64,000 bases of DNA from a virus (Duplodnaviria; Caudoviricetes), in the IMG/VR virus record IMGVR_UViG_2840904412_000002, positions 9,071-73,070 of that record. One strand, given 5' to 3'. The first letter of the stretch is position 1. Each line of letters starts with the position of its first letter. Of this stretch, positions 1 to 36,766 are shown piece by piece. The notes below the pieces were generated by a model. It had not been told where the DNA came from and did no database searches. It worked only from the letters and a program-made list of their open reading frames with translations. Made by a program: the position numbers and the translations under genes.

Positions 1-254
1 ATATAAAGAACCCTTATTTGTTGCTAATGTTATTCCTAGTGGAATAGGTATAGATACTATTACTGGTAGGAGCGGTAAAGGGTTTTTTGAACGACAACGA
101 GAAGAACGTATTGCAACATCTAAAGGAATAAGTGTAAAAGGCGGGGACTATACAGGAGTGTTTATTACACTAGAAAACGTAAAGTGGAATAAATCGTATA
201 TTCCTCTAGAAAGTGTCATAGAGTATTATAAGCAAACTAAAGAAGGTAGGATTA

Positions 255-1007
255 ATGTCTGAGATGTTTTATGAACAAGATATTAAAGATTTAATTAGAA
301 CTAAGAAACACTTATTCCTTGATGATGAAATTACGAGTAATATAGACGATATTAAGATATTTAATGAGAAAGTAATATGCCAAGGGAAATGTAGAACAGA
401 TTGCTTAGTACTAGACCGTAATGGTACAGTTATGGGGATAGAGATAAAAACAGAAAGAGACTCTACACAAAGATTAAATAAACAACTGTATTACTATAGT
501 CTAGTCTGTAAATATGTTTATGTATTTTGCCATGACAAACATGTACCTAAGGTAGAAAAGATACTCAAAGAACATAAACATGACCATGTAGGAATCATTA
601 GTTATATCAACTTCAGGAACAAACCTACAGTAGGTAAGTACAAACAAGCAACACCATCACCTTTCAGAAGCCCTTACCATACTTTAAATATATTATGGAA
701 GTACTCTTTACTAACTATGTTAAGAATCATTAGAGACTACCCTAAATATTATAATAAAAATGCAATACATACATTTAATAAAAATGGACATCAAAATGAG
801 TTAGCTACTAAGGGTACACAGTCTTTAAGAATGAAGAAGCCTGCTATCATTAATCAAATTATTGGTTTTATAGGAGTAGAAAAAACATATCAGTTATTTT
901 GTAGATGTGTGATATATGGGTATGATAATAGATGGCAACTTATTGATGAATCGTTTTTTGATGTAGTTAAGAATGGGGTGATTGGTATATATGAAGAAGA
1001 AAGATAA
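255..1007 (+). CDS. PD-(D/E)XK nuclease-fold protein (sce7726-like), conserved in Twort-like phages
   Basis: 250 aa; RTDCLV...GIEIKTERDSTQRLNKQL motif. Confidence 0.6.
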   Translation: MSEMFYEQDIKDLIRTKKHLFLDDEITSNIDDIKIFNEKVICQGKCRTDCLVLDRNGTVMGIEIKTERDSTQRLNKQLYYYSLVCKYVYVFCHDKHVPKVEKILKEHKHDHVGIISYINFRNKPTVGKYKQATPSPFRSPYHTLNILWKYSLLTMLRIIRDYPKYYNKNAIHTFNKNGHQNELATKGTQSLRMKKPAIINQIIGFIGVEKTYQLFCRCVIYGYDNRWQLIDESFFDVVKNGVIGIYEEER

Positions 1008-1413
1008 ACCAAAAAGAATATGGCACCAACCTGTTAACTTTGCTCCTACAAACAACCTAGCAGGAGCAAACCCTACATTTTTTCCTAAAAAGAGACAACG
1101 AGCTAAAGAGACAAAAGGTTATGAGTACCGTATTCAGCTTATTAAAAAGTTTGAGAATGTCTCAAATTCAGATGTTAGTATGCAAAAAAAATATATATTA
1201 AATCTTATTAGTCGAGACTTGCATTTACCTGAAAAATATATTACACTAAAACAGAAAGGTACTAAAAAAGAAACCATAATGTGTACAGATAGAGTATATT
1301 ATGTGTACCGTTCTAAAAAATTAATTGGTAAGTGCTCAATTAGAGAGCAAAGAACATTTAAAAATACTCATTTAATTTTTATATTTAAACTAAGGAAAAG
1401 GAAGATAAACTAA
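982..1413 (+). CDS. basic conserved hypothetical phage protein
   Basis: 143 aa ORF coupled to neighbours. Confidence 0.6.
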   Translation: MVYMKKKDKPKRIWHQPVNFAPTNNLAGANPTFFPKKRQRAKETKGYEYRIQLIKKFENVSNSDVSMQKKYILNLISRDLHLPEKYITLKQKGTKKETIMCTDRVYYVYRSKKLIGKCSIREQRTFKNTHLIFIFKLRKRKIN

Positions 1414-2205
1414 ATGGAAATGATTAATAAAGAAACCGCTATTAGTATGTCTACATTACTTAAAAAATTAAAAAAAGGACCTACTATTGTAGGTGCAGGA
1501 TATGGCTCCGAGCTATTCCCTTATCAGCTATTAGTAGAGCCTTATATAGAGGTAGAGGAATCTGAGGATGGGTTTTTGAAAGTGTACAATAAAGTATTTG
1601 TTCCTTCTCATAAAGTAACAGAGTTTAATAATTTCAGTATTGTATTGGAAAATGCTATGTTAGGCTACACTACTAAATTACAAAAGCAAAATAAAAATAC
1701 TTTTGATATTATGACTTCTTATAAGGAAGATAAAGATATTCACGAGTATGCTATTTCTAGTGTATTTGACAGTCCTACTATTACTAAGTCTTCTTTTACA
1801 ATTAGTAAAAAGAAGTTTACTGTGTATAAACTTACAGAAACACAAGTTACATCCTTAGACTTTAAAGACTTTACACATACACTATATTTAGTAGTACCGG
1901 AAGATGATGGCTTTCCTAAAGGTAGACTAAGTAAGACAGAAACACAACACTTTCTTAATCTATTCTCAGATACTAAAGTGATACCAGAAACAATTAACGC
2001 TGTATCTTCTTCAAGAAGTAATGTAAGTTTTGATATGTACGAACCTAATGGATTTATTCTTATTTTCAAAGCTAACATTTATGAATTAGGCTCTAAAAAC
2101 CACAATGTCTCTTTTCACAAAGACCTTATTAAAGGTAGTACTCTAGGTAATAACACTATTACAATACATTTGAAGAATTCACATGAATTACAGTTATTTT
2201 GGTAA
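1414..2205 (+). CDS. hypothetical protein
   Basis: 263 aa ORF abutting the upstream stop. Confidence 0.65.
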   Translation: MEMINKETAISMSTLLKKLKKGPTIVGAGYGSELFPYQLLVEPYIEVEESEDGFLKVYNKVFVPSHKVTEFNNFSIVLENAMLGYTTKLQKQNKNTFDIMTSYKEDKDIHEYAISSVFDSPTITKSSFTISKKKFTVYKLTETQVTSLDFKDFTHTLYLVVPEDDGFPKGRLSKTETQHFLNLFSDTKVIPETINAVSSSRSNVSFDMYEPNGFILIFKANIYELGSKNHNVSFHKDLIKGSTLGNNTITIHLKNSHELQLFW

Positions 2206-2534
2206 TATTTAGTCCAGTTCTATTATTTTTATATATAACAAAATAGTTAATAAAAATAATGACAAGTAGTGTAGTATAAAAAAGTAACAGTAAAATATTG
2301 AAAAATATTTTTATAATTTATATTCATTTTGAAAATAATTACCATAGAAATTTACTACTAGATAGTTAATAGTTTATTTCTATGGTTTTTTAAAAATAAA
2401 ATTTAGGAAAAATAGTGATATATTAAGTATGAAATACCCTTTGAAACCTTATTCTAAAAGGGTTATAGTAGTTTAATATAAAGTGTTTCAATATTAGTTT
2501 AACTTATTATATTAATAAAGGAAGATACATAAAT

Positions 2535-3263
2535 ATGGCTAGAAAAAAGATGAGAAATAAAAACGATAAGACTCTAAAAGTTGTACCCGAGAAGAAAAGT
2601 ATTCTTGTAGAGTTATACGAGAATAAACTTCTACGTACAAAAGTAGATAATGCAATTGATGAGGACCTAGGTTATGACTACATCATAGAACTATGTAAAG
2701 AGTATGGGTTAGAATTATCTAAGTCTGCTATTAGTAGATATAAAACTAAACGTAGAGAAGCTATTCAAAATGGTTGGGACTTAGGGGAATATATTGATGG
2801 AAGAAAGAAAAATAATGTTTCTTCTATTGAAGATAAAGAAGTAGATGTATCTAGTAAAGTAAACCCTTCACATCCATTTGAAGTAGCTAAGAAAAAAACA
2901 CAAGATATTTATGATGATATTGAGGTTCTTGATAATATTATCCAAGCAGGTGCTTTAGGATTACAATACGTAGATACTGTAGACCCTGCTCTAGCTATTA
3001 AGGCTATGGAAACTAAACATAAAATTACAAATGGACAGTTACAAGGAATGAGCCTTATTGGTATGCGTGAGCTTTTAGTTAAACAAAACGCCCGAGATAC
3101 CGCAATAACTCAAGTTATTCTAGAGTACATCCCAGAAGAAAAACATGAGGAAGTTATGGAGCGTTTAGAAGAAACAGAAAAAGAATTCTATGAAAACTTA
3201 GACCTAGATGAAGAAGATATGAAGTTAAAACAAGCATTGGATAGAGTAGGATACTCTATTTAG
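2535..3263 (+). CDS. conserved hypothetical protein (possible HTH near N-terminus)
   Basis: 242 aa, RBS AAAGGAAG; YIIELCKEYGLELSKSAISRY. Confidence 0.65.
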   Translation: MARKKMRNKNDKTLKVVPEKKSILVELYENKLLRTKVDNAIDEDLGYDYIIELCKEYGLELSKSAISRYKTKRREAIQNGWDLGEYIDGRKKNNVSSIEDKEVDVSSKVNPSHPFEVAKKKTQDIYDDIEVLDNIIQAGALGLQYVDTVDPALAIKAMETKHKITNGQLQGMSLIGMRELLVKQNARDTAITQVILEYIPEEKHEEVMERLEETEKEFYENLDLDEEDMKLKQALDRVGYSI

Positions 3264-3277
3264 AATAGGAGAAGTAT

Positions 3278-3742
3278 ATGGTAGAAGAAATAGTATTTAA
3301 ACAGTTAGAAGAGGCACAACCTATTAAAGAATTAAGTACAATTATTAGATATTTAGAAGAAGGTAAAGTTCTATTGGTTAAACAAGAAAACCAAGGAGAT
3401 ATTATTGTAAAACTTACAAGTAACAGTACAAATGGACATAAAATGACTTATATTAGCAGAGATATTAAAGAAGAGTCGAGCTACTATAAAAGACATTGGG
3501 CGCCTTTTGATATTAGTATTAATGCTTTTATTGCTTTTGATGTTTACTTAGCAGAAGATGTTAATAAGTATAATTATAATAATAAGTTTAATATTAAGGA
3601 TATTGTAGAATTTGTAGCAGGAGATAGTAAGGACATTGCTTATGTGCATGATGTATTTACTGATGGCAGTAAGTTTCTATACAGCTTAACAGGGGAAGAA
3701 AGATTATTTGAAGAATATGAATTACGTAAAGTTAATCGTTGA
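3278..3742 (+). CDS. hypothetical protein
   Basis: 154 aa, RBS AGGAGA. Confidence 0.65.
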   Translation: MVEEIVFKQLEEAQPIKELSTIIRYLEEGKVLLVKQENQGDIIVKLTSNSTNGHKMTYISRDIKEESSYYKRHWAPFDISINAFIAFDVYLAEDVNKYNYNNKFNIKDIVEFVAGDSKDIAYVHDVFTDGSKFLYSLTGEERLFEEYELRKVNR

Positions 3743-3797
3743 CAAAGTATATGAGTTATGGTAAAGTATGTATATACTTATTAAAGGAGAGATTATA

Positions 3798-4229
3798 ATG
3801 ATTATTTACTTAAATGAGGAAGAGAAAAATTTAGTAGGAGGTAAAAAGTATACTCCCCTAGAAGCTAAATTTAGAACTAAGAAAGAAAAAGATATTGTAG
3901 AGATGTATCGTAAAGGGCATCCTGTTACTGATATTTGCAATGTACATAATATTAGTATGGGATTACTATATACTGTAATTAACAACCATAAATTAGGTAA
4001 ACGCAATATTACGAAAAACCTACAAAAGAAAATTTCACATGTTTTAAATAATAAAGAAAAACTAGAAAACTTGTTGAATGATTATGGTAAGTTAACAAAT
4101 AAAGATATTTACCATAAGTACCAAATTCATAAAAACGGACTATATTATATCTTAGATTTATATAATATTGATAGAAAACAAGGTACTAAAGAAGAGGTAT
4201 TATCAGATAGTATTGTAATTGAAGAGTAA
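3798..4229 (+). CDS. putative HTH DNA-binding protein
   Basis: two HTH-like repeats (VTDICNVHNISMGLLY; NKDIYHKYQIHKNGLY); RBS AAGGAGAG favours a start at 3798; sigmaA-like promoter upstream. Confidence 0.55.
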   Translation: MIIYLNEEEKNLVGGKKYTPLEAKFRTKKEKDIVEMYRKGHPVTDICNVHNISMGLLYTVINNHKLGKRNITKNLQKKISHVLNNKEKLENLLNDYGKLTNKDIYHKYQIHKNGLYYILDLYNIDRKQGTKEEVLSDSIVIEE

Positions 4230-4241
4230 GGTGCTGATAGT

Positions 4242-4910
4242 ATGAATTATCAAGAAAGACTACGAGAAATTAGAAAAAATAGTACACAAAAAAAAGCTAG
4301 GACTAGCAAAAACTACACTTTAAGTGAGCTAGAAGTATCCCTATTTGATAAAGATAGTGATGTTATTAGTCCTTTTACAAGTGTAACTAAAGATGATATT
4401 ATTAAAGGTAATGAATTATTTATTGCTTCTTTACCTAATGATATAACACTTGAAGATGGGACTACTTTAGAGAAAGGACAATATATTGGTAATAGTATAG
4501 GTAGACTAGCAGATATGGAGAAACTAGAGGACTCAGGTATATATTCTAAAAGTCTTTATGAAAACGGACATAGAATTAACTTACTTGCAGTTATCAAAAA
4601 TCCTAAGTCTGTATATACACAAAAAGATTTAGTATTAGATGTTAAAAATAAAACTGAGGTTAAAGATATAACAACTAAAAGTGCTTTTGTAATATCTAAA
4701 CAAAAGGTAGATTACCTAGAGCTTGTAGATACCTACTATTTTGATAAGCTCATAGATGATGTCCTTAAAAATTATAATAACTTATCTAATCCTAATAACT
4801 TACTTAAGAGATATATTAAAAATAAAAAAACTTTAAGTGAGGGTAAAAGAATGATTTATTGTCCTTTACTAGATGAATGTTTAGCTATAGTAGGTGACTC
4901 TAATGAGTAG
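4242..4910 (+). CDS. hypothetical protein
   Basis: 222 aa ORF. Confidence 0.6.
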   Translation: MNYQERLREIRKNSTQKKARTSKNYTLSELEVSLFDKDSDVISPFTSVTKDDIIKGNELFIASLPNDITLEDGTTLEKGQYIGNSIGRLADMEKLEDSGIYSKSLYENGHRINLLAVIKNPKSVYTQKDLVLDVKNKTEVKDITTKSAFVISKQKVDYLELVDTYYFDKLIDDVLKNYNNLSNPNNLLKRYIKNKKTLSEGKRMIYCPLLDECLAIVGDSNE

Positions 4911-5298
4911 TAAGAAGTGGTTATTTTATATCATAGTATTAGCTGTGTTAACAAGTGCTGTGTTTGCATACTCGTGGACTTCTATATACTATGAGAAAAA
5001 CACGTATGAATCTGGTGTAGTACAAGACAGTGAAGTAAATAACACAAAGAATAATGGTGACGTAGAGTATGTTACAACAGTAACACTAAAAAAAGATACG
5101 GATAAAAAAGCTACCTTTATGAATGATTTACCTAACTTCTTACCTGGTAGGATAGATAATAAAACAATAGATAAGAGTTTCTATAAATCTAGTGATTTTC
5201 GTGAAGGAGAGAGATTCAAGCTCTACAGAATATACACAAAAGATAGCAATGGTGAAGTAATTCATAAATACCGTTTTGAAAAGGAAGTAGATAAATAG
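4894..5298 (+). CDS. membrane-anchored protein
   Basis: N-terminal hydrophobic helix WLFYIIVLAVLTSAVFA. Confidence 0.6.
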   Translation: MTLMSSKKWLFYIIVLAVLTSAVFAYSWTSIYYEKNTYESGVVQDSEVNNTKNNGDVEYVTTVTLKKDTDKKATFMNDLPNFLPGRIDNKTIDKSFYKSSDFREGERFKLYRIYTKDSNGEVIHKYRFEKEVDK

Positions 5299-5419
5299 TG
5301 GCTCCGCTAACTATATCAATTGTAGTAGGTATCTGTATTGTATACTATTTATTGGAGAAAGATTAGGTCAAGAAAACACTTGACCTTTTTTATTTGTCTA
5401 TATATAATAATGAGTAGAG

Positions 5420-5668
5420 GTGATAGATGTGGGAAATTTAAAAACATTTTATGAGGAAGTCAGACATTTGGAAAATAGAAATATTGCTAAAGACCAAGTA
5501 ATATTAGAGGCAATGGAGACATATAGTAGATTAAGAGGAACATTAACAAATAGGCAATTAAGTATTGACATCTTTTTAAATTATGGTATAGTAGAATATA
5601 TGAAGTATAAAAAACATTTACGTAGGTTACAAAAGTGTGTTTTAAATACATATACGGAAGGAGAATAA
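5420..5668 (+). CDS. hypothetical protein
   Basis: 82 aa ORF downstream of a promoter. Confidence 0.5.
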   Translation: MIDVGNLKTFYEEVRHLENRNIAKDQVILEAMETYSRLRGTLTNRQLSIDIFLNYGIVEYMKYKKHLRRLQKCVLNTYTEGE

Positions 5669-5670
5669 CT

Positions 5671-5892
5671 ATGATTAAAGAAAAGTTTTATAATGAATTG
5701 AGTTACTACAGAGATGGACATAAAGATTTGGAAAGTATGTTTGAGTTAGCATTAGAGTATATTAACAAGTTAGAAGAAGAGGAACAAGCAATAGCTGAGT
5801 ATGAAGAGACTATCGATGAGAATTTAGAAGATGCTATTGATACAATTGAAAGCCAGTTAGAGATTATCAAAGATTTGGTTAAATGGACGTAA
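5671..5892 (+). CDS. acidic coiled-coil hypothetical protein
   Basis: RBS GAAGGAGA before ATG at 5671. Confidence 0.55.
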   Translation: MIKEKFYNELSYYRDGHKDLESMFELALEYINKLEEEEQAIAEYEETIDENLEDAIDTIESQLEIIKDLVKWT

Positions 5893-6060
5893 TTTGATGA
5901 GTAGTTTTGATGAATTCCTCAAGAAAGAGATTAAAAAAGTTAAAAAACCGTATAGTAAACAAAAGAAGAAAGTAGAAACACCTATAGAAGAAGTACAAGA
6001 AAAGTTAGCTAAAATTAGAAGTAAATCAAATTATATGGACTTAGGTAGGAGGTATAATAA

Positions 6061-6267
6061 ATGAAATCATACACAAGCAAAAGAGTATCTGCTAGTATTG
6101 AGGAAATGAAGCAACACAAAGACTTTAGATTATTATTTGGGTTTGATGATGTAACTTTGTATCTACTTAGTGAACAAGAAAATGCTAAAACATTCCCAAT
6201 GGATAAGAAAGAACTAGATAAAGTAGAGAAGAAATATTCTAAAGAGAAGTTCTTCACATACTTATAA
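6061..6267 (+). CDS. hypothetical protein
   Basis: RBS AGGAGG, 68 aa. Confidence 0.6.
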   Translation: MKSYTSKRVSASIEEMKQHKDFRLLFGFDDVTLYLLSEQENAKTFPMDKKELDKVEKKYSKEKFFTYL

Positions 6268-6279
6268 AGAGGTGAATTT

Positions 6280-6480
6280 ATGTTAGTAGCGTTAGTAGGT
6301 ATTTGGTCTTTACTATTTATATGTGTAGTATTAAATATCAAATTAAATAATATTTTCGTTATAGGAGATTACGTAGAGTTTAAGGACAGGGTTGTAGCAA
6401 CAGTATTTTTCTTATTCTTAAGTTTAACTATGGTTATTGGATTATTAATTATATTCAAAGGAGTATATGGACAATGGTAA
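6280..6480 (+). CDS. small membrane protein
   Basis: two hydrophobic segments, RBS GAGGTG. Confidence 0.55.
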   Translation: MLVALVGIWSLLFICVVLNIKLNNIFVIGDYVEFKDRVVATVFFLFLSLTMVIGLLIIFKGVYGQW

Positions 6481-6752
6481 AAGAGAATATTAAAGAACTT
6501 TTAGGATGTATCTGTAATTGTGTAGATTCCTTTATGCCAACAGGAAAAAGTTACGTAATTTATACTGATAATAAAGTGATTGTTAAGCACAAGGGTAGTA
6601 TTGTTGTAATTATTGAAGATGATGTAGTATATGGTAATGTCTCTCAACTAAAAACTGGTACTATAGAGAAGCAAACATTATACACTTTAGTTAAAGCACT
6701 TCAATATTTAGTAAGTTTAGATTATCGTGAAAGAGAAGATGTAAATATTTAA
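6474..6752 (+). CDS. hypothetical protein
   Basis: 92 aa, RBS AAGGAG. Confidence 0.55.
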   Translation: MVKENIKELLGCICNCVDSFMPTGKSYVIYTDNKVIVKHKGSIVVIIEDDVVYGNVSQLKTGTIEKQTLYTLVKALQYLVSLDYREREDVNI

Positions 6753-6830
6753 AAAAGTTTAGGGAATCTGTTGACATTCAGATTCCCTTTTGTTATACTT
6801 TAATTAAGATAAGAAAAGGAGTTGTTTATT

Positions 6831-7415
6831 ATGAAAAAAGTATTTATTGCAGGAAGTTTAGGTTTAATGCTATTCGTGGGTGGTTGTGGTAATCAGCCAA
6901 CACACCATCAAGAAGTAACTTTAGAAGACAGAGACACACAAACTGAAGAAGTAAAAGCACAAGATAATAATAGTAATCAAACAGCAGAGTTTAATGGAGA
7001 AGTTAATCCAAATGGTAACGGAGCTCCACAACATGTTACGAATACACCTAGTGGAGATAAAGAAGTAACAGAGTTATTTGAGAAAGATTTTCAAGATATT
7101 GCAGACCAAACTGCTACCCTAAGAGGCTCTATTGATGGGTTTATAAGCTCTGAAACAAATATTAAAGCAGGAACTTCTGTGTTAAAGGCAAATAGAATTG
7201 TAGACCATGTAGATGCACTTTATGACACTACAGAAGACGAGACAATTATTAAAGGACAACTACAACAAATGGCTGACTTATATAAGAAATCAGCGGACAA
7301 CCTTGAGAGATATGAAGACACTTTAGATGAGCAATACTTAAATAGAGGTAAAGAACAATATCAACAAGCATATGATTTAGAAATTCAAGCTAAGCAAGGT
7401 ACTAATATAATTTAG
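6831..7415 (+). CDS. lipoprotein
   Basis: MKK + hydrophobic core + lipobox-like FVGGC; own TTGACA promoter. Confidence 0.65.
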   Translation: MKKVFIAGSLGLMLFVGGCGNQPTHHQEVTLEDRDTQTEEVKAQDNNSNQTAEFNGEVNPNGNGAPQHVTNTPSGDKEVTELFEKDFQDIADQTATLRGSIDGFISSETNIKAGTSVLKANRIVDHVDALYDTTEDETIIKGQLQQMADLYKKSADNLERYEDTLDEQYLNRGKEQYQQAYDLEIQAKQGTNII

Positions 7416-7427
7416 GGGGAATAAACA

Positions 7428-9317
7428 ATGAAATTTAAAAAATTACAAAAATCACCAGAAGAACTAATTATAAATTCTAAAGCTGTGACAGGCTCAACAT
7501 TAGTATATGGGGATAAGATTTACTATAAATCAAAGAAAGACAAAGTAGATGTACTAGCACCCTTAGATATGTTTTATGATATAAAATATGTGCTTAATAA
7601 TACTACTGCATCTATTATTTTATTTAGAGCTTTATGTGGACACCCTAAATTAACAAAATTTAAAGGAGACTACAAAGAAGTATTATATAAAATTAATGAA
7701 GAAAAAGTAAAATTCAATAACTTAGATTATGAGTACTTTTACAATGACCAAGTAAAACTTGATTCACAAGAAGAACAAGAAAAACTAACCAACTTTCTTT
7801 CACTTCCTTTAAATGAGAAAATCCAGTACAAATCAGTAAGACGCAGAGAGCACGTACGAGACTCACATAGCTATCAAAATATGTATTCTTATCCTTGGGT
7901 TGTTAATAGGTACTCTACTGAAGAGAAAGCTAAACTCAAAGAACTATATACTAGTGTAGGGTCTACTCTATCTGATATTGTATTTGATAATTTATATTCT
8001 AATGGTAAAGGTCATATGTATGATAAAGATAATATGACATTATTAAAGTTAATAGGAATGTTTGAACCTCAATCATACAATGGTAATAGTTATTATGTTA
8101 AAGTAAAATATTTTAGAGACTTAGAAGATATTCTGCCAGAAACTAAAATTAAAGAATCACACCTAAATACTAAGACTGGAGACTTATATATTAAAGTAGA
8201 TGGTGCTTACTCATACAGCTTCTCTATGAACATATATAAAGAAGAGTATACCAAGGAATACTATAAACAAGGCTTAACTTTTAAAACATTAGTAGAGGCA
8301 ATAAAGATACACTATATTAAATATAGTTCTATGACAAACAATGTATTATCACAACTTAACAATGACATAGTAAAAAGCGTTTTAGTATTAGATAGAATTA
8401 TTAATTCTCCTTATACTGAGCTATTTGACAATGTGTCTAACTATATAACTATACCTAAAACAAAAAAGTGGAAACTACAAGATTTATTAGGTATTTCTAA
8501 ACAACAGCTAGAAAAATTAAATGAGTACAATAAGCATGAACAACGCAATTATATTATGATGGTAGATATATTAAAAACATATTATAAAGCACTTTACACA
8601 GAAGAAAACTTAAATAAGTTAAATGATACCACATTTTTAATGTTAAACCATAATCACTCTATCGTATATGTACTTAGAGAATTGAGCAAATACTATAGTA
8701 TTAGTTTCTCACAATTAAAAAAGATAGTAGAATACGTGGATGTAGATGCTCATGAAAGACAATGTATTGGGAATGTTAAATATACTTATATTGATTATAT
8801 AAGAATCTATCAAAGGCTAGTTAGTGCGGGATACAGAACTTTAGACAGTATTAATTTCACACCATTTTCTTTAAAGTTAGAACATGATATTATATCTCAT
8901 GAATATGTAATGTTGAAAGACGATGTTGATGACTCGATATTAGAAAGTAAATATGACTCAACTTATGATGTCATCACAAAGAAAAAATATAAGTACAATG
9001 GTGAGAATATTGTATTCCTTCCTGCAGACTCTAAAGATAAACTAAAGGATGAGGGTAAGAGTTTATCTCATTGCGTTGGTGGATATACATCTAGAATTAT
9101 AGAAGGTAAATGCGTAATATTCCTTGCTCGTAAAGAAAAAAATATTGATGAGTCATGGTTTACAGTTGAAATTAGAAAGACTGTTAATGGTTTAGTCTTA
9201 GGGCAACAACAGTCTATTAATAAATATAAGTTGCCACCTGAATTAAAAGAACAACTAGAAAAAGATATTAGAAAGATTAATGCAAAGCATCAAGATGAAT
9301 TACAGAAAGCCTCTTGA
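7428..9317 (+). CDS. PcfJ-domain protein
   Basis: 629 aa; C-terminal LKDEGKSLSHCVGGY...CVIFLAR...FTVEIR typical of PcfJ-like domains. Confidence 0.7.
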   Translation: MKFKKLQKSPEELIINSKAVTGSTLVYGDKIYYKSKKDKVDVLAPLDMFYDIKYVLNNTTASIILFRALCGHPKLTKFKGDYKEVLYKINEEKVKFNNLDYEYFYNDQVKLDSQEEQEKLTNFLSLPLNEKIQYKSVRRREHVRDSHSYQNMYSYPWVVNRYSTEEKAKLKELYTSVGSTLSDIVFDNLYSNGKGHMYDKDNMTLLKLIGMFEPQSYNGNSYYVKVKYFRDLEDILPETKIKESHLNTKTGDLYIKVDGAYSYSFSMNIYKEEYTKEYYKQGLTFKTLVEAIKIHYIKYSSMTNNVLSQLNNDIVKSVLVLDRIINSPYTELFDNVSNYITIPKTKKWKLQDLLGISKQQLEKLNEYNKHEQRNYIMMVDILKTYYKALYTEENLNKLNDTTFLMLNHNHSIVYVLRELSKYYSISFSQLKKIVEYVDVDAHERQCIGNVKYTYIDYIRIYQRLVSAGYRTLDSINFTPFSLKLEHDIISHEYVMLKDDVDDSILESKYDSTYDVITKKKYKYNGENIVFLPADSKDKLKDEGKSLSHCVGGYTSRIIEGKCVIFLARKEKNIDESWFTVEIRKTVNGLVLGQQQSINKYKLPPELKEQLEKDIRKINAKHQDELQKAS

Positions 9318-9355
9318 CAGAGGTTCTTCTGTAGTATATAATAAGGGGGAATTAT

Positions 9356-9673
9356 ATGAGGTCTAGGGAGTATTATGAAAATAAAGCTAAAAAGAAGATT
9401 ACTAGGATTTTCAAAAAGCAAATAAAAAGAAAATACAAGGAAGAAACTAAAAAAGGTAAATTTACAACATTTACTTACAAAGAAATTGAAATAGAAAGCG
9501 CATATGGAAATTTGTATTTATTTAGTATTCATAGAGAATTATTACTAGATTGTTTTATTAAAGCATTGGAAGAGCTGAACACCAAGTATAACATATCTTA
9601 TAATACCGATACATGGTATTTTACAATAAAAAGTAAAAAGATTAATAAAAAATATAAGGAGTGTGTATCTTAA
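9356..9673 (+). CDS. hypothetical protein
   Basis: 105 aa, promoter and RBS. Confidence 0.55.
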   Translation: MRSREYYENKAKKKITRIFKKQIKRKYKEETKKGKFTTFTYKEIEIESAYGNLYLFSIHRELLLDCFIKALEELNTKYNISYNTDTWYFTIKSKKINKKYKECVS

Positions 9674-9876
9674 TGAAACACGTAGAATTAAGAGAAGATG
9701 AATTAGGAAATCAATATATTTTCTTCCATAAGAGTGATGTAGAACCAAAATATGCTGTTCCATGCTTAGACTTAAATAAAGGGACTTTAGGTATGGTAGA
9801 AAAGATAGATATTGCAGAAGTATTTCCATTGTTAGTAGGACACATTGACACAAATGATTTGAAAAAATATATTTAG
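9673..9876 (+). CDS. hypothetical protein
   Basis: TAATG stop/start overlap. Confidence 0.5.
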   Translation: MKHVELREDELGNQYIFFHKSDVEPKYAVPCLDLNKGTLGMVEKIDIAEVFPLLVGHIDTNDLKKYI

Positions 9877-9896
9877 GGAAGAATTTTATAAGTAAT

Positions 9897-9968
9897 CTAG
9901 ACTTAGGTGTTGACATTAACCTAAGTCTTTTGTATAATTAAGATATAGATAAGGAGGAATTAATTATG
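9897..9968 (+). repeat. duplicated hairpin-promoter-RBS cassette (second copy ~11804-11874)
   Basis: TAGACTTAGG...CCTAAGTCTTTTGTATAATTAA..TATAGATAAGGAGGAATTAATTATG occurs twice. Confidence 0.8.
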
Positions 9969-10313
9969 AATAAGAATCTAAAGGTAGTACTAGGAGTTGT
10001 TATTTTATTGTTTGTCTTGGTGAGTTGTGTTAGAACACTATCTACTCCCGATTATGTAGGAGAATGGGAATCTATAGAAGACGGATATGCACATGAATGG
10101 GTTGAGTTTACCAAAGATAAAATGATAGTTAGTGGTAAAGAATATGACATTGAAGCGGAAGAAAAGGGAGAGTCCTCACGCATTAAAGTAAAAGATGTTA
10201 ACGGAGATGTGCAAATTGACCTTATTATTGCTTTTAAAGATAAGGATAATGCAACTGTGTATGCGGAAAGTACATTTAGTGATGCACAGGTATTTGACAT
10301 CGTAAGAAAGTAG
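9966..10313 (+). CDS. lipoprotein / exported beta-rich protein
   Basis: signal peptide with LVSC; YVGEWES motif. Confidence 0.6.
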   Translation: MNKNLKVVLGVVILLFVLVSCVRTLSTPDYVGEWESIEDGYAHEWVEFTKDKMIVSGKEYDIEAEEKGESSRIKVKDVNGDVQIDLIIAFKDKDNATVYAESTFSDAQVFDIVRK

Positions 10314-16472: not shown

Positions 16473-16706
16473 GTGGTTATATTTATATTGCATATTATTA
16501 CGATTATTATCCTAGTAGTATGTTTTTGGGTACTTCTTTCTTCTAGTAGTCCTTTACATTTCTTAGCATCTGTATTTGTGTATATTACTATTATCAATAT
16601 AGTAGGTATGTTAGATATAAGTAAGTATATTTTAAATGTAATAGGATTCTTCATAATGGCTGTTGGGTTATTGATTCTTTTAATGAGAACAAGGATATAT
16701 AGGTAG
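16473..16706 (+). CDS. small membrane protein
   Basis: three TM helices, RBS AGGAGG. Confidence 0.6.
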   Translation: MVIFILHIITIIILVVCFWVLLSSSSPLHFLASVFVYITIINIVGMLDISKYILNVIGFFIMAVGLLILLMRTRIYR

Positions 16707-16855
16707 TATTTATCCTAGAAAGTAGAATGAGTGTCAGAAGCGGAGTTTATAAGAGCTGAGGAGGTATGTAAGTAGGAAGCGGTTAAGTATTTCCGCTTCT
16801 TTTTTGTTGACAGAGGTTAGGGTAAGTAGTATAATGTATGTAGAGGTGATAAGGT

Positions 16856-17092
16856 ATGAAAGTAATAATTAAAGATGTAGAGCTAAGTGAAAATTGTATT
16901 GTGTTTAATTCTGTTATTGATGACTTTGGTATCATAATTAACCATGATTATGGGTATAATGTACTATGCATTAATAGAGATGAGTCATCGTATGATGATG
17001 TAGGAGAAAACTACCTTGTGTATAGTAACCCACTAACTATTGGTGAACTCAATCGTGATAATAAATCAGTACCTAGTATTTCAATAGTATAA
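16856..17092 (+). CDS. hypothetical protein
   Basis: consensus promoter, RBS GAGGTG. Confidence 0.55.
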   Translation: MKVIIKDVELSENCIVFNSVIDDFGIIINHDYGYNVLCINRDESSYDDVGENYLVYSNPLTIGELNRDNKSVPSISIV

Positions 17093-17170
17093 GAAAAATT
17101 TATCACTTATTATAAGAAATAACTATCACATTAACTTGACATATGAGTAAAAGTATGTTACATTATATAT

Positions 17171-17560
17171 GTAAGGAAAATAGAATAAAGACCTGAAGAG
17201 GATATGTGCAGTCAGTAGCATATCGGAATAGGGACAATTGATGAGGTGGTAGTGAGCCTCGAGCAACTGACATGAAACTCACAGGGCGGGTATAAGATTG
17301 CAATGCTTATACTTTGTAGTAATAGATACACTATTACTTCTACCATAGTTGGTGATGGCTACCAGTGCAACAAAGGTCAGGGTGGACTCATAGATTCTTA
17401 GAATCGGGGTAGCATTTACCTATTAAGTTAGGTTACACGGATATGAGTGTGTGTAAAGATGTTAACAAAATGATACTAAACCAAGCCTATACTGAAAAAG
17501 TATAGATTAAATTCTCTAGTATTAATAGTATACTTGTTATACTAGGGGGTTTAATCTACC
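17171..17560 (+). ncRNA. candidate large structured ncRNA (~390 nt)
   Basis: promoter TTGACA(17136)-17-TGnTACATT; no ORF; GC-enriched; many stems; ends in long hairpin TAGATTAAATTCTCTAGTA...TACTAGGGGGTTTAATCTA. Confidence 0.6.
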
Positions 17561-17842
17561 CAGAACCTTCCTGAAATATACTATATACTATTATTAATAA
17601 TAAACTTCTTTATAATACTACTAATTACTTCTCACTTATATATATATATATATTACTTACCTTTATATACTTCTTATACAACTTCTTTATAATAACTTAT
17701 TTCTTATACAATACCAACCATACTATACAGAATTACTTATAACTATACACTATACTATTATACTTAAGGATAAGTATATACTTTTTTAAGCATAATAAAT
17801 ACCGCTTCTAGTAATTAACTATTGAAGCGGTTAATGAGACTT

Positions 17843-18568
17843 CTATTCTATTTCATAATAATAGTAATATAAAGAATAGCAAAATTGTCCTTTATGGTTA
17901 CCTAGTACTACTATAAGTTTTTTATCTACATTAATTTCACGTAGTAAGTATGACTCTATTCCTGCAGATATGCTATCTACATCTTCAGAGAAACCTTCCA
18001 TAATAATAAACTCATCAGCACGTATTCCTCCTAAATATCCGTCTTTCTTTTTTATAGTAAAATTATTCATAGGATGAAAATCTAATAGTACATCTAAATC
18101 TTTTAGGTTATTGCGCATTGTGTATTCATAACTTTTAGATAATACTTCTTCAATATTGTTCTCATTAAGTTCTACATTTAGTATATTAATAGATTCTTTA
18201 TTTAATCTATCAATAAATGTAAGTTTACCTTGTTCTATTAAAGGCATATATAGTTTGTTATTCCTAATAGAATGTAAGCTGAACCTATTCATAGCATCCA
18301 TAGGTATATCTGTTGTAACAAATACATCATTGTATACGTGACTTTTTACTGCACTTTCATATATAAATTGGTCTCTGGTACCACTATATTTATCTGGTGA
18401 TTCATTACCTACGTGTAAATACATTTTATACTGTGGTAAATGAAAACTAGGACTAGAATAATAAGACTTTCCATTTATTTTTACTTGCTTCCTTCTGGGA
18501 TATTGATAAACGATATTCTTAGCTTCAAAAAACTTTTCCCATTCTAATTCTTTCTCTTTTTTATTCAT
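17843..18568 (-). CDS. hypothetical protein with degenerate PD-(D/E)XK-like N-terminus
   Basis: RBS GAAAGGAG before ATG at 18568; ELEWEKFF...YSSPSFHLP...YLHVG. Confidence 0.55.
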   Translation of the reverse strand: MNKKEKELEWEKFFEAKNIVYQYPRRKQVKINGKSYYSSPSFHLPQYKMYLHVGNESPDKYSGTRDQFIYESAVKSHVYNDVFVTTDIPMDAMNRFSLHSIRNNKLYMPLIEQGKLTFIDRLNKESINILNVELNENNIEEVLSKSYEYTMRNNLKDLDVLLDFHPMNNFTIKKKDGYLGGIRADEFIIMEGFSEDVDSISAGIESYLLREINVDKKLIVVLGNHKGQFCYSLYYYYYEIE

Positions 18569-18727
18569 AAAACTACTCCTTTCTAATAGAAGTGTACCAA
18601 ACAATAAGATATTTGTCAATACTCTTTCCCGCTTCTATATAATTATTGAAGGCTATGTCACGAAACTAGACTTTCCTATACAGTTATAGTATACTAGTAA
18701 TAGGTAATTAATAGGAAGGAGAGGGTT

Positions 18728-18997
18728 ATTATCATAATAGATAGTAGTCATTTATCAGATGTACATTTTATAGTTAAAGGTAATACAATAAAAACTAAAG
18801 CACTAATTACAGATAATCATGTTTCTTATGCTTTAGTAGAAGATACAAATCATTTTGATACTGATATGTTCAAGTATGTATTTACATTAGAAGAACCTGA
18901 ATCAACGATTGTATATCTCAATAACCAGAAGATAGGGCATACAAAAGAAGATTTATTCAAATTTTCTTATGATTATCTTAAACAATACTTGTTATAA
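18728..18997 (+). CDS. 89-aa ORF with non-canonical (ATT/ATC) start, absent from ORF track
   Basis: promoter TAGACT-17-TATACT, RBS GGAAGGAGAGG, open frame to TAA at 18995-18997. Confidence 0.5.
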   Translation: MIIIDSSHLSDVHFIVKGNTIKTKALITDNHVSYALVEDTNHFDTDMFKYVFTLEEPESTIVYLNNQKIGHTKEDLFKFSYDYLKQYLL

Positions 18998-19228
18998 CTA
19001 TTGACAAAACTTTTCCTGATACACAATTGAGAATAGAATGATAATACGTTTCGGACGACAGGTATATAATACATTGTAGATTACTTCTGTCGTCCGAAAG
19101 CCAAAAAGGAGTAAAATTAGTGTATGTCACGAAAAAACGATTTTCAATTAATTACTCTTTATCTATTGACACTCATTCCTTTATACCTTATAATTAAACT
19201 ATAATCAAATAAAGGGAGAAGATAACTT

Positions 19229-19525
19229 ATGGAATTATTAAATAGAATTGAACAAGAAGGTTTTGAAATTGAACATATTGAAGACGGGGAATATCTTATT
19301 AAAGATATTAATGGTAAGGAAGCGGTACTTACGATGGCAGATGGATATGCTATTGTCACCAATAACGAGGGGCTAGAAACTCATATCTATGATAGTAAAC
19401 CTTCATTAATTATCAGTGAGTTATTAGATGCTATGAACTATGACTTTGAAAAAGAACAGAAGAAAAAACAATTAGCCAAAGCAAGAAAAAATAAGTTTGA
19501 TGATTTATTAGAACACTTTGATTAA
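19229..19525 (+). CDS. early (terminal-repeat-type) protein
   Basis: TTGACA/TATAAT promoter, RBS AGGGAG. Confidence 0.65.
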   Translation: MELLNRIEQEGFEIEHIEDGEYLIKDINGKEAVLTMADGYAIVTNNEGLETHIYDSKPSLIISELLDAMNYDFEKEQKKKQLAKARKNKFDDLLEHFD

Positions 19526-19722
19526 TAGAATCAATTTTAAACATATCAGTTAAGATAGGCTCTTGAGCTGACGCTAAGGAATTTTTCTCTAAGGGGTTTT
19601 ATCCTAAAACACATTAAGTTGTAGAAACTCTAAGTAGACAAGTATAAATTTGGTATAAGAAGCGGAATGTATTTAGGGTAAAACTATAAGTTCCGCTTCT
19701 ACTATAAAAAGGAGATGTTATA

Positions 19723-19926
19723 ATGAATATTCAAGAGGCAAAGGATAAGTTATTTGAATTATTTTTATTAGACTTAAAGGATTATGATAATAATTTACTT
19801 GAGGACGATTTATGTAAGTTAGTTGATGATATGGAAGGATTGTTTGATACACAAAACCTTAGATATACTGATAGACATGGAACCGTTTTGTTTATTGAGG
19901 ACTGGTTAGAGGGTGTAGAACCATAG
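19723..19926 (+). CDS. early acidic protein (paralog of 20047 N-terminus)
   Basis: MNIQEAKDKL vs MNKEQAKNKL. Confidence 0.6.
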   Translation: MNIQEAKDKLFELFLLDLKDYDNNLLEDDLCKLVDDMEGLFDTQNLRYTDRHGTVLFIEDWLEGVEP

Positions 19927-20046
19927 GATAAATCATTTACGATAACTTACCTTGAGATAAGTTGAGATACAGTAGGATGCAATAGCTTAGGATGTTAAGA
20001 TACCTAAGTATAAGTTTAATACTATTATTGAAAAGGAGGTTTCTAC

Positions 20047-20466
20047 ATGAATAAAGAGCAAGCAAAGAATAAGTTATACGATGAGTTACTTTATACAGTA
20101 CGTGAGTATGGAGGTACAGAAGCGGATTTATTAGAGCTTATTGATAGTTTTAGTTATTTAGACGGGTGGGCTCCGATATTCACGAGTCCAGAAAGAGAAC
20201 AACACTATTCAATTGAACAATTTCTTAAGGAACAAAAGCCTGTTTTAGAGAAATACTTAGATAATTTAGATATAGTATATAGTAAAGAAGTAATCAATGG
20301 TTATGTAATGTATAGGTTATTCAATGATGCCCTTATTATAAAACCAGATGAGGATAAGTATAATGTAAATATTAAAGTGGGGAATAGGGAGTTTATTACA
20401 CTTTCCTTATTATCCTTTACGGATATAACAGATATTATTATAGGTAATAAAGATAAATTTCAGTAA
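20047..20466 (+). CDS. early protein
   Basis: RBS AAGGAGG; terminator hairpin follows. Confidence 0.65.
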   Translation: MNKEQAKNKLYDELLYTVREYGGTEADLLELIDSFSYLDGWAPIFTSPEREQHYSIEQFLKEQKPVLEKYLDNLDIVYSKEVINGYVMYRLFNDALIIKPDEDKYNVNIKVGNREFITLSLLSFTDITDIIIGNKDKFQ

Positions 20467-20658
20467 GTATAATTTAAATCCCTAGAGTGAAATACCTCTA
20501 GGGTTATTTTTATTATTTGACTAAGTATAAACTAGCTTTCAGAAGTGAAAATAACTAAATACCAAAATGAGTAAGTAGCAGTTTTTGATTAAACCCAAAA
20601 ATGAGTAAGTAGAGATTAACCTTTCTACCCGAAAAAGATATTAGGTAATAGATTCCTA

Positions 20659-20673
20659 AATATTCTGACAATT
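20659..20673. promoter_or_regulatory. CodY-box-like site
   Basis: AATATTCTGACAATT, 2 mismatches to AATTTTCWGAAAATT, with overlapping weaker boxes. Confidence 0.45.
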
Positions 20674-20711
20674 TAGACAAAAGGGAGAGCGGTCACAATG
20701 ACCGCTTACAA

Positions 20712-20927
20712 TTAATTAATTTTTTTATATAACTCTGATAATTCTTTTTCTAATTTTTCAATTAGTTTTGTGTCATTATTTTCTTTTGCTCTTCTTAACT
20801 TCATTTCACGGATTTTAATGCATCCGCTTCCTGAAGTCAATTTTCTTTCTAGCTTGTTGTCGTTCAAGTGGTCTAGTTTGCTTTTGCGTCCGTCTAATGT
20901 TACCCCAAAGTTTTTTTCATTTTTCAT
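20712..20927 (-). CDS. small basic early protein (opposite strand)
   Basis: RBS AAGAGG, 71 aa. Confidence 0.55.
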   Translation of the reverse strand: MKNEKNFGVTLDGRKSKLDHLNDNKLERKLTSGSGCIKIREMKLRRAKENNDTKLIEKLEKELSELYKKIN

Positions 20928-21083
20928 AATTAATCAACCTCTTTTATATATTTTTTGTAGTGGTTTATTATCTCTTCTACACTTATAATGATAAAGCATA
21001 ACGGCAAAAAAGTAAAGCATTTTTTGGGTAAAATTTTACACTTTTAAATAGTCGGAATTGTTTTCATATTTAGAACAATTCAG

Positions 21084-21098
21084 AATTGTCTGAAAATT
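21084..21098. promoter_or_regulatory. CodY-box-like site
   Basis: AATTGTCTGAAAATT, 1 mismatch. Confidence 0.5.
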
Positions 21099-21235
21099 TA
21101 AACAACTTAAAAAGGTCATCAGTTCCATTATATAATAAGAATAAACCTATTGCAACACTTAATTTATTTAACATGTTGTGTATTATGTATTTAATAGTTC
21201 GGGTCGTGTTTTTTCTATATAATAGAAAGAAAGAA

Positions 21236-21333
21236 AAAAGAAATTTAAAAAAGTTAGTCAAAAGGGTTTACAAACTTTAGGGTCTATGTTATTATAACTA
21301 TAGAAAGTTAATCAAAGGAGGAAAACACTATGA
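21236..21333 (+). repeat. duplicated early promoter-RBS cassette (second copy ~23341-23438)
   Basis: AAGAAATTTAAAAAAGTTAGT.AAAAGGGTTTACAAA...ATGTTATTATAACTATAGAAAGTTAATCAAAGGAGGAAAACA. Confidence 0.8.
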
Positions 21334-21533
21334 AACAAGCACAAGCAATTAAAAAATTCATTGAATTAAGAAAAGAACTAAAAGAACAAGGTTATATTAT
21401 TTCTAAGAAACAGTTACTATCAAATATGGAAATTTGGTACTTAGATTTAAAAATTGCTTCCCAAATCGAATGGTTCATTAAAACACCTAACGATATTATC
21501 ATTAAAGATATGAAAGAATTCGGGGACTTATAA
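21330..21533 (+). CDS. early protein
   Basis: strong promoter and RBS. Confidence 0.6.
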   Translation: MKQAQAIKKFIELRKELKEQGYIISKKQLLSNMEIWYLDLKIASQIEWFIKTPNDIIIKDMKEFGDL

Positions 21534-21702
21534 TATGATTAAAATTAAGATAGGCAAAAAGAAAATCAAAAGCACCGAAAAAACTGATAACATTTTAATT
21601 AGTATTGGGGCTTGCACACTTACAGCAATTATGATAAAGTTAATACAACTACAATTTACATTACCACTTGAAACGTGGTTACGATAAGAAAGGAATGATT
21701 TT

Positions 21703-22005
21703 ATGACAAAGAAAATAGCACACGATATAATGAAAGCATACGACTTTGATGCTTTCAGTGATAACGTGTTTATGCAATATAAGAACAAATTGAATGATAC
21801 AAACTATCATTTAGAATTTAACGTATTTAGTGAAGATTGGCTTAACGGGTCAATCGAATTTTATAAGAAAAACAATTTCTTCAAAAAGAATAGAAACTTA
21901 AAAACGGGTTGGGCAACATTTAAAAATGGTTGTACAATCTTAAAGGTAGATAGTACATGCTATGTTATCTTAAATGGTGTACTTATTCACCAAAAAGAAA
22001 TTTAA
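21703..22005 (+). CDS. early protein
   Basis: RBS GAAAGGA, 100 aa. Confidence 0.6.
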   Translation: MTKKIAHDIMKAYDFDAFSDNVFMQYKNKLNDTNYHLEFNVFSEDWLNGSIEFYKKNNFFKKNRNLKTGWATFKNGCTILKVDSTCYVILNGVLIHQKEI

Positions 22006-36285: not shown

Positions 36286-36464
36286 TATATCACCTTACCT
36301 TATTTGTTAGTATAATCTTATCTTACTACACAAATTTATTAATGTCAACATCTAATTTATAACATGTTGTGTTATTACTGCAATCAGTATACACTACCTT
36401 TTCTATTTTGTCAACAAAAAAAGTACCTACAAATTAATGTAGATACTTATACTATAATTATAGA

Positions 36465-36665
36465 TTTTAAGGCGTGTACATGAAGGGTAACTCATGTAGG
36501 GTTTAGTAGTAAGATATAAAGCGCCTACCACGCAACATACAACGCCTCTTGTATGTTATTATATACGTACTGGAAGAAGTTACCAGTAGGAACCTACAGG
36601 CATATACAAAGCCTATGCCAGGCAATATACGGTATATCTCGTATATCAGGTATAATACCTTATAG
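36465..36665 (-). ncRNA. candidate multi-hairpin ncRNA downstream of tRNA-Met
   Basis: about six consecutive hairpins, no ORF, terminator at ~36415-36448. Confidence 0.45.
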
Positions 36666-36766
36666 TTATTATCTTGTAACCTATAACTTCCGATAATTAG
36701 GGTTTTATAATAACTACTGTATAAGTAACTATAACCTATAAGTTTTTTGTATACTAGGGACTATAA

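Follow-up and report, generated by a model that had tools for sequence, protein, structure and literature searches.

Does a stretch of phage DNA that has a promoter and a raised GC content, and in which no protein appears to be encoded, give rise to a functional RNA and, if so, of what kind? This question is raised by positions 17136-17560 of a window of 64,000 nucleotides (nt), corresponding to positions 9,071 to 73,070 of the Caudoviricetes record IMGVR_UViG_2840904412_000002; unless another genome is named, coordinates below are those of the window. An initial annotation, made from the letters alone, had proposed here an undescribed phage non-coding RNA (ncRNA) with several possible pseudoknots, perhaps a ribozyme or a scaffold for a ribonucleoprotein (RNP). 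Comparison with related phages indicates that the element is very likely a real structured RNA gene. Its family, which has probably escaped description so far, is a new one within a broad kind that is already known, that of large ornate phage ncRNAs with no known function. The assignment to a phage was also right, as the window belongs to a low-GC (about 27%) Twort-like phage of Staphylococcus (Herelleviridae, subfamily Twortvirinae), and a query of 8 kilobases (kb) around the element gave a match of 93% to vB_SpsM-DH2 and of 85% to Twort.

The evidence that carries this conclusion is the covariation among homologues. With the structure model fixed by hand and its pairs then counted on alignments, the 50 pairs of ten helices were found to be paired in 97.3% of the cases across 11 sequences from about seven lineages, and 23 of these pairs (76 cells) had changed on both sides; six slid controls gave 0-5 two-sided pairs, and none of 500 shuffles reached the observed values on four of the five measures used. 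For the 5' core (nine sequences), 31 pairs were 97.6% paired and 14 had two-sided changes, the slid controls giving 0-1 and 0/500 shuffles reaching the observed values. The consensus obtained with RNAalifold from 10 sequences contained 61 pairs, 19 of them with compensatory changes, and a script scan of the 11-sequence alignment for co-linear pairing columns brought up two more long-range helices, the pseudoknots named PK3 and PK4 below. Concerted change is also seen between pseudoknot partners separated by as much as about 120 nt of alignment. A core covariance model, built from nine sequences with the window copy among them, recovers three sequences outside its building set at 70.7-73.6 bits. 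These have UACACAU/AUGUGUA as helix P2, GGUGA/UCACC as pseudoknot PK1, GAAG/CUUC as helix P3 and, by eye, AUCGGA/UUCGAU as pseudoknot PK2; since these four pairings are kept with changed bases, the same architecture is found there in different letters. The window copy itself, whose sequence was used in building the model, scores 148.5 bits (E-value, E, of 4.8e-28) on the 5' core model.

The strand and the non-coding nature of the element were established on the same alignments. As the initial annotation had stated, there is no credible open reading frame (ORF): those overlapping the element have only 32-46 amino acids (aa), no frame stays open throughout 11 homologues (the longest stop-free runs cover 19-78 of about 130-150 codons), and insertions or deletions of 1 nt occur within the most conserved core of the homologue alignments. 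Five G-U pairs are invariant (11/11 sequences, 8/8 for one of them) and would be C-A mismatches on the minus strand, which fixes the plus strand as the RNA strand. The predicted fold of the plus strand has -108.5 kcal/mol (z -3.44, one of 100 shuffles as good), that of the minus strand a z of -2.02. The raised GC content, too, was borne out, with 0.43 at 17200-17399 vs 0.19-0.30 in the flanks. The predicted sigma-A promoter matches 10/12 consensus positions and has an extended -10 TG, with a spacer of 17 nt. Since a consensus scan is not significant by itself (10 promoter-like sites in 16500-18200 vs 11.4 +/- 3.4 in shuffles), the support for this promoter comes from its conservation, the -35, TG and -10 elements being kept at the same spacing in 7/7 lineages aligned. 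From this spacing, transcription is predicted to start at about 17171.

Measured to its UCUACC tail, the RNA is about 390 nt long here and 376-456 nt in relatives. Its fold comprises about 12 helices (P1 to P12) and three to four pseudoknots (PK1 to PK4), at least three of which are well supported (Table 1). All six hairpins named in the initial annotation are present, P2, P3, P4, P5 and P10 being backed by covariation and P12 occurring in every lineage, and the three loop pairings it had proposed, GTCAGT/ACTGAC (PK1), GTGAG/CTCAC (PK2) and TATGAGT/ACTCATA (PK3), all covary. What did not survive is its closure of a domain by GACCT/AGGTC, which has no two-sided pairs and a middle pair unpaired in 7/11 sequences; its two strands belong instead to P1 and P7, helices that do covary. 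Between P1 and P2 lies an invariant purine-rich internal loop, GAnGAG / GGAA, and the P4 loop holds a conserved GCAAUG. Invariant unpaired stretches are found around the pseudoknots (AUAAAGA, GAnGAG, GGAAUA, CGAGCA, UGGUGAUGnCUACC and CAGGGnGG). In the PG-2021 and Baoshan lineages PK1 is written GUUAAG/CUUAAC; the JDF86 clade has GGUGA/UCACC for PK1, apparently AUCGGA/UUCGAU in place of PK2 (read by eye), no P5 and a different P4. Save for these P4/P5 differences, the first 235 nt or so (P1 to P8) are common to all lineages; the next 150-220 nt, approximately, exist in two alternative forms, all ending in a long hairpin followed by UCUACC. The tentative PK4 would join the P10 loop to the invariant 3' tail and, in the window, competes with the base of P12. 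As modeled, the tertiary structure looks like a rigid globular fold and not like a switch. The definition proposed for the family includes the extended -10 sigma-A promoter, P1-P2 with the GAnGAG/GGAA loop, PK1, PK2 and PK3, the central UGGUGAUGnCUACC...AAAGGnCAGGG block, and the 3' hairpin plus UCUACC; every one of these elements is carried by the window copy, itself a member of the model-building set.

Table 1. Coordinates of the RNA gene, of its helices and pseudoknots, and of its immediate surroundings in the window.
Feature	Position	Strand	Remarks
78-aa ORF	16856-17092	+	directly upstream of the RNA gene
Sigma-A promoter (predicted)	17136-17164	+	-35 TTGACA 17136-17141, TG 17156-17157, -10 TACATT 17159-17164
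Structured RNA domain, ~390 nt	17171-17560	+	predicted start through to the 3' UCUACC (17555-17560), which is invariant
P1	17192-17195 / 17229-17232	+	2/4 pairs with two-sided change, 100% paired; encloses P2
P2	17201-17207 / 17218-17224	+	5/7 pairs with two-sided change, 100% paired
PK1	17211-17216 / 17266-17271	+	P2 loop GTCAGT with ACTGAC; 3/6 pairs with two-sided change
P3	17243-17246 / 17257-17260	+	3/4 pairs with two-sided change
PK2	17252-17256 / 17278-17282	+	P3 loop GTGAG with CTCAC; 1/5 pairs with two-sided change
P4 hairpin	17289-17296 / 17306-17313	+	two-sided changes by RNAalifold; outer P4 also counted by hand
P5 hairpin, variable	17318-17325 / 17331-17338	+	two-sided changes by RNAalifold
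Central block UACCAUAGUUGGUGAUGnCUACCA...AAAGGnCAGGG	17341-17379	+	near-invariant; contains P6 and P7
P6	17341-17345 / 17350-17354	+	never varies; predicted, alternative register possible
P7	17356-17360 / 17375-17379	+	one pair of three types: G-U, A-U, U-A
P8 outer stem, tentative	17386-17389 / 17407-17410	+	competes with PK3
PK3	17387-17392 / 17442-17447	+	CTCATA with TATGAG; 2/5 pairs with two-sided change, 100% paired
P8 hairpin, inner stem	17393-17397 / 17401-17405	+	folds in 9/9 sequences, with 5 different inner-stem sequences
P9 hairpin	17418-17433	+	between the PK3 strands
P10	17434-17439 / 17448-17453	+	4/5 pairs with two-sided change; loop carries the PK3 strand TATGAG
PK4, tentative	17439-17442 / 17554-17557	+	GGAT with ATCT; 1/4 pairs two-sided (U-A vs C-G), 100% paired
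P11	17487-17492 / 17500-17505	+	
P12, long 3' hairpin	17504-17522 / 17539-17557	+	present in every lineage
AT-rich tail	17561-17787	+	extremely G-poor; ends in a weak A/U hairpin plus T6 (17759-17787)
G+C-rich inverted repeat ACCGCTTC...GAAGCGGT	17801-17831		same arrangement in CF5
Convergent 258-aa gene	17843-18619	-	downstream of the RNA gene and its tail

The comparison with Rfam, which had been suggested together with the test of covariation among homologues, returned no known family for the element. Two outcomes that the initial annotation had named as refuting it, a lack of covariation and a match to a known family, are both contradicted by these results. At gathering thresholds, Rfam 15 (4227 models) gave three matches in the window (two group I introns and one tRNA), none of them in 17136-17560; a permissive search (E up to 10, 1 kb) gave eight weak matches, all far below gathering, the best one inside the element being rli51, with 21.5 bits vs a threshold of 48 and on the 3' hairpin only. 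In four other lineages, a search with E up to 1 gave five matches, all of them outside the RNA. The literature search found no description of this RNA, and the ncRNA-mining preprints of 2026 that it returned do not mention Staphylococcus or Twort. The initial annotation had been unable to assign the element to tRNA, transfer-messenger RNA (tmRNA), RNase P or intron classes, and this stands: for tRNA, tmRNA and RNase P RNA there is no Rfam match in the element, and ARAGORN reports only a tRNA-Met in the window (36766-36839); a group I intron is rejected because RF00028 is silent here at E up to 10, because no exon halves flank the element and because it possesses a promoter of its own. The same model places two group I introns above the gathering threshold elsewhere in the window (55420-55661 on the plus strand, 83.4 bits; 47306-47634 on the minus strand, 75.6 bits). 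A riboswitch or T-box leader was discarded as well, on the grounds that there is no family match and no adjoining terminator, and that the next gene is co-directional in Baoshan-type phages only. Some likeness to the hammerhead exists, since the invariant CUGAnGAG, a hairpin and GGAA recall the core strands CUGANGA ... GAAA. However, P1 of this RNA pairs the base preceding CUG, plus CUG, with UAG plus the following base, and GGAA is followed here by U, whereas the A15.1-U16.1 pair of the hammerhead core requires an A after GAA. No hammerhead model matches at E up to 10, and the likeness is a coincidence because the CUG sits in a covarying helix (2/4 pairs two-sided).

Among the systems to which the RNA can be compared, GOLLD and ROOL are likewise large, multi-helix, pseudoknotted ncRNAs of Firmicutes phages with no conserved protein neighbour and no known function, and some of them, as cited in PMC9241854 and PMC7698491, are transcribed very abundantly. 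In phages and prophages they usually sit next to tRNA genes. Membership in these families is rejected, as there is no family match and the nearest tRNA is about 19 kb away. The present RNA differs from them in being smaller, with about 380-460 nt, in lying in the early region near the terminal repeat and not beside tRNA genes, in having its own sigma-A promoter, and in being known only from Staphylococcus Twortvirinae. The packaging RNA (pRNA) of phi29 is another structured RNA encoded by a phage; its early promoter lies near a genome end, and it acts as a folded RNA and not as an antisense; it is about 170 nt long, is essential for phi29-like packaging motors and has an Rfam family. By contrast, the present RNA has no Rfam match and is accessory, being missing from close relatives with the same virion machinery.

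Closer in phylogeny are the ncRNAs reported by RNA sequencing (RNA-seq) in Kayvirus, which belongs to the same phage subfamily: lnc001/lnc002 and snc001-007 in phage K (PMC9241854) and lncRNA1/2 in vB_SauM-515A1 (PMC7698491). Three of the small ncRNAs of phage K are reported to map to the terminal repeat, and snc001 (3114-3628 of phage K, plus strand) to follow the row of early plus-strand genes, antisense to a convergent gene (PMC9241854). These transcripts are defined by read coverage, without a covariation-supported structure, whereas the present RNA is defined by structure alone. Homology between them was rejected, as blastn of seven family members against positions 1-10000 of phage K gave only chance matches of 16-24 nt and as phage K and vB_SauM-515A1 do not have the RNA gene. 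A comparison made for shared modules elsewhere in the non-coding DNA of the window, and in that of phage K, Twort and DH2, likewise gave only chance matches, of 16-33 nt. As a separate observation, an ORF-free region of about 480 nt (36286-36765, minus strand) lies directly downstream of the tRNA-Met (36766-36839, minus strand), with GC up to 0.36 and a fold z of -4.0 (0/100 shuffles as good); after about 330 nt it has an internal hairpin plus a U-run, followed by TTGACA. Its position matches that of a very abundant 'lncRNA1/lnc' reported after tRNA-Met in Kayvirus RNA-seq (PMC7698491, PMC9241854), and it is probably a second structured RNA gene, unrelated to the one described here.

How is the RNA distributed? 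It was found by blastn in 36 phage records, which became 39 after a second search with a divergent member, all of them Staphylococcus Twortvirinae of about seven lineages. The CF5 copy is 89% and the Sepunavirus one 79% identical to that of the window; other carriers are the PG-2021 group (most grown on Staphylococcus xylosus), Baoshanvirus BS1, BS2 and Golestan101, and a further Baoshan-labelled clade (JDF86, PSU4, RSM-J51Sa). In most annotated records nothing is annotated beneath the match; small hypothetical ORFs are present there in four (BE24, BE25, Terranova, Twillingate), those of Terranova and Twillingate having 41 aa on the minus strand. The element is single in the 73-kb IMG/VR record according to the covariance model, with no second copy within the window. 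The core model gave no match (0/3) in whole phage K, Remus and Twort (E <= 1 in phage K), nothing better than 12.9 bits (E 0.62) in the first 10 kb of phage K, no match in A511, SPO1, phiEF24C and the Twort record with the terminal repeat, and two chance-level matches in LP65 (E 0.15 and 0.71). Whole DH2 was also negative, while each of four carrier genomes searched as positive controls gave exactly one match (4/4). An nhmmer search over 376 loci found known members only, and a pattern scan of IMG/VR found phiSA_BS2 plus two chance matches inside coding DNA; neither is ground for claiming absence from metagenomes or bacterial genomes. Independently of this RNA, the Remus record (JX846612, 9677-10000) has an IS605 OrfB-family (TnpB-like) transposase inside a region marked 'similar to portal protein'.

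This patchy distribution, with cassette-like gain or loss, marks the RNA gene as accessory. DH2, the closest relative of the window, has flanks 92-97% identical but does not have 16844-19024 (2.2 kb), in place of which it carries other sequence; the missing segment comprises the 78-aa ORF, the RNA gene, its tail and the convergent 258-aa gene with its PHROGs matches of unknown function, and its edges form a mosaic cassette boundary. Between clades, the ORF directly upstream of the RNA is unrelated (13-18% identity, CF5 excepted with 53%), for which reason a conserved protein partner next door was rejected. Downstream genes differ between lineages in both identity and orientation, the next gene being convergent in the window, CF5, Sepunavirus and PG-2021_35, and co-directional, more than 400 nt away, only in Baoshan-type phages. 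When a related phage contig is compared to the window, 7/389 positions differ in the RNA, against 62 plus 16 gaps of 526 just upstream, and part of the tail is replaced. Because neighbours and flanks differ while the RNA stays alike, the conserved and exchanged unit is the promoter plus the RNA.

As to the genomic setting, window positions 19124-21707 match part of the annotated left long terminal repeat of Twort, near TreI. Measured from the left end of the record, the counterpart of the element is found at 3.7 kb in CF5 and at 4.9 kb in Terranova, upstream of TreK. The element would therefore belong, by synteny in the case of the window's own genome, to an early block situated at the terminal repeat or close to it. 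In the window, the genes next to the RNA have no Pfam match; their PHROGs matches are to families of unknown function, with a marginal 'Holliday junction resolvase' (E 0.0057) as the one exception. Just before the 78-aa ORF there is a perfect 12/12 sigma-70-type promoter (TTGACA, 17 nt, TATAAT; 16807-16835, plus strand), typical of the dense row of early promoters of the region.

The 3' end of the transcript is less easily placed than its start. Directly after the structured domain there is no terminator (0 terminator-like sites under the stricter rule), and the first hairpin plus T-run is found 222 nt past the RNA end in the window and 204-357 nt past it over the set of ten records examined; the hairpin is weak in some of them and missing from CF5. 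On the plus strand of the intervening tail, at 17561-17780, two consecutive blocks of 110 nt contain 2 and 4 G and 19 C each (GC skew to -0.74), a G-poor bias seen also in CF5 and, in the first 110-nt block, in the Baoshan lineages; this tract could be of the Rho-utilisation type. The end could be produced by processing to the 3' hairpin or by Rho-dependent termination in the C-over-G tail, or else the transcript could be longer. The inverted repeat beyond the tail is probably the terminator of the convergent 258-aa gene and may also stop plus-strand transcripts. Iteron-like direct repeats (AAGTAG-type) occur in the downstream spacer of two clades, Sepunavirus and PG-2021_10: BE05 of Sepunavirus (1966-2140) has five copies of yAAGTAGTAyyGT by eye, or three per family by repeat search, and PG-2021_10 (2048-2153) has three imperfect repeats ending in AAGTAG, with the arrays located before the terminator. 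They look like iterons or protein-binding sites. The window spacer has no such array and contains AACTTCTTTATAATA twice instead.

What, then, does this RNA do? The reading we tentatively favour, while giving it somewhat less than an even chance, is that of a folded RNA acting in trans, which would bind a host or phage factor for takeover or counter-defence; it is preferred because there is no conserved protein neighbour, no common downstream target and a rigid-looking fold. According to this model, the host sigma-A RNA polymerase would transcribe the RNA from the conserved extended -10 promoter in the early block, and the RNA would be expected in the first minutes of infection since the promoter is of the host type and the block lies near the terminal repeat. 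A compact 5' core would form from P1 and P2 around the purine-rich loop, the loops of P2 and P3 pairing downstream to give the interleaved pseudoknots PK1 and PK2, next to the near-invariant central block with P6 and P7. The exchangeable 3' domain would be locked onto this centre by PK3, and perhaps by PK4, and would end in the long hairpin plus UCUACC. So folded, the RNA may serve as a specific binder, a decoy or sponge, whose target would be a protein of the host or of the phage or else a small signalling molecule, an accessory function in host takeover or counter-defence exchanged among Twort-like phages.

Several points weigh against this proposal. Transcription, the RNA ends, the action in trans and the nature of the partner are what we infer, and for expression no RNA run is listed for 16800-17900 of the window, while the published Kayvirus RNA-seq covers phages without this gene. 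The four sequencing runs compared consist of contigs, from which transcription cannot be read; in two of them, guessed to be RNA, a single short Sepunavirus-like contig covers part of the RNA gene, which is no proof of expression. The mechanism rests on exclusion and analogy, with no partner identified and no binding motif recognised. Covariation events are few per pair because the family has a narrow base, namely a single phage subfamily with 39 records in about seven lineages, and the fifth measure, that of further pair types, is not above shuffles (327/500 for the whole, 232/500 for the 5' core). Since the first hairpin plus T-run comes so far downstream, the functional unit could be a longer transcript, and the spacer repeats hint at a role at the DNA level or in cis.

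The alternative that survives best, although we consider it unlikely, is a ribozyme, possibly a new class of large ribozyme, in which the conserved junctions around the interleaved pseudoknots would be the active site, for self-excision from a longer transcript or for action on other RNA. The size and complexity of the RNA (about 12 helices and three to four pseudoknots) fall in the range of large ribozymes, the invariant unpaired stretches flank the pseudoknots, and a variable peripheral 3' domain surrounds a constant core; self-excision would also explain why the conserved part lacks a terminator at its 3' edge. On the other hand, even a limit of E up to 10 brings up no ribozyme family, the hammerhead-like motif is contradicted by the covariation that pairs its CUG with UAG, neither a cleavage site nor a substrate can be named, and invariant junctions are equally expected for a fold that binds a protein or a ligand.

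Less likely again is an element acting in cis on its own transcription unit or on the downstream DNA. In one version, the RNA would modify the transcribing polymerase or control read-through into the tail, antisense to the convergent gene or, in Baoshan-type phages, into the next plus-strand genes; in another, the RNA would prime or activate replication from an origin situated in the AT-rich spacer with its repeats. It agrees with such a role that AT-rich sequence, 204-357 nt of it, always separates the structured domain from the first hairpin plus T-run, that the spacer is strongly G-poor in the window, CF5 and the Baoshan lineages and bears repeats in Sepunavirus and PG-2021_10, and that read-through would be antisense to the convergent genes of the window, CF5, Sepunavirus and PG-2021_35. 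A plus-strand transcript antisense to gp009 in the terminal repeat is reported for phage K (PMC9241854, Table 1). Nevertheless, the sequence and the repeats of the spacer are not conserved between clades while the RNA is, and no single cis target emerges because the downstream genes are convergent in some clades and co-directional in others. Moreover, with four tertiary pairings that covary, a stable globular fold is more plausible than a switch, and the known cis-acting polymerase-modifying RNAs are far smaller.

An architectural particle made of RNA only, a self-assembling multimer like GOLLD and ROOL, is doubtful. What speaks for it is that the RNA, large, ornate and phage-borne, has a promoter to itself and lacks a conserved protein neighbour, and that cryo-electron microscopy has been reported to reveal homo-oligomeric assemblies of the phage-associated GOLLD and ROOL RNAs (bioRxiv 10.1101/2024.12.08.627333). 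Yet the present RNA matches neither in Rfam and is not next to tRNA genes (the only tRNA of the window is 19 kb away). That there is no functional RNA at all, only a conserved DNA site (protein-binding or packaging-related) or a decaying gene remnant with incidental structure, could be argued from the indirect case for expression and from the phylogenetic narrowness of the family, but is very improbable given 23/50 pairs with two-sided compensatory changes vs 0-5 in slid controls, distant pseudoknot partners that change together, strand-specific invariant G-U pairs, a consensus promoter at a fixed distance, and a region more conserved than the neighbouring coding DNA.

Within the favoured reading of a trans-acting binder, a bolder version can be proposed, to which we give only a small chance: the RNA might be an immediate-early, aptamer-like sponge or decoy whose knotted core captures a component of host immunity, on a cassette traded among the Twort-like phages of coagulase-negative staphylococci. 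Such a component could be a nucleotide second messenger of cyclic oligonucleotide-based antiphage signalling systems (CBASS), of type III CRISPR systems or of Thoeris-like systems, or else a sensor or effector protein. To our knowledge, counter-defence agents of this kind are so far known only as proteins.

Large RNAs whose tertiary structure is backed by covariation are rare and fall into only a few known classes. Where their function was later worked out, it was that of a ribozyme, of an RNP core or of an unexpected assembly. The RNA described here is compact enough for study, with a clean promoter and at least three well-supported pseudoknots, and its carriers, among them Sepunavirus, Baoshanvirus and CF5, are culturable lytic phages. 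The window phage and DH2, with flanks 92-97% identical and differing by the cassette, make up a natural presence/absence pair, so that loss-of-function and complementation tests are straightforward. Kayvirus relatives have been described as candidates for therapy (PMC7698491, PMC9241854). If it is true that this RNA acts to manipulate its host during the first minutes of infection, an RNA player would be added to phage takeover and anti-defence, and this would also bear on the prediction of host range and efficacy of staphylococcal phages.

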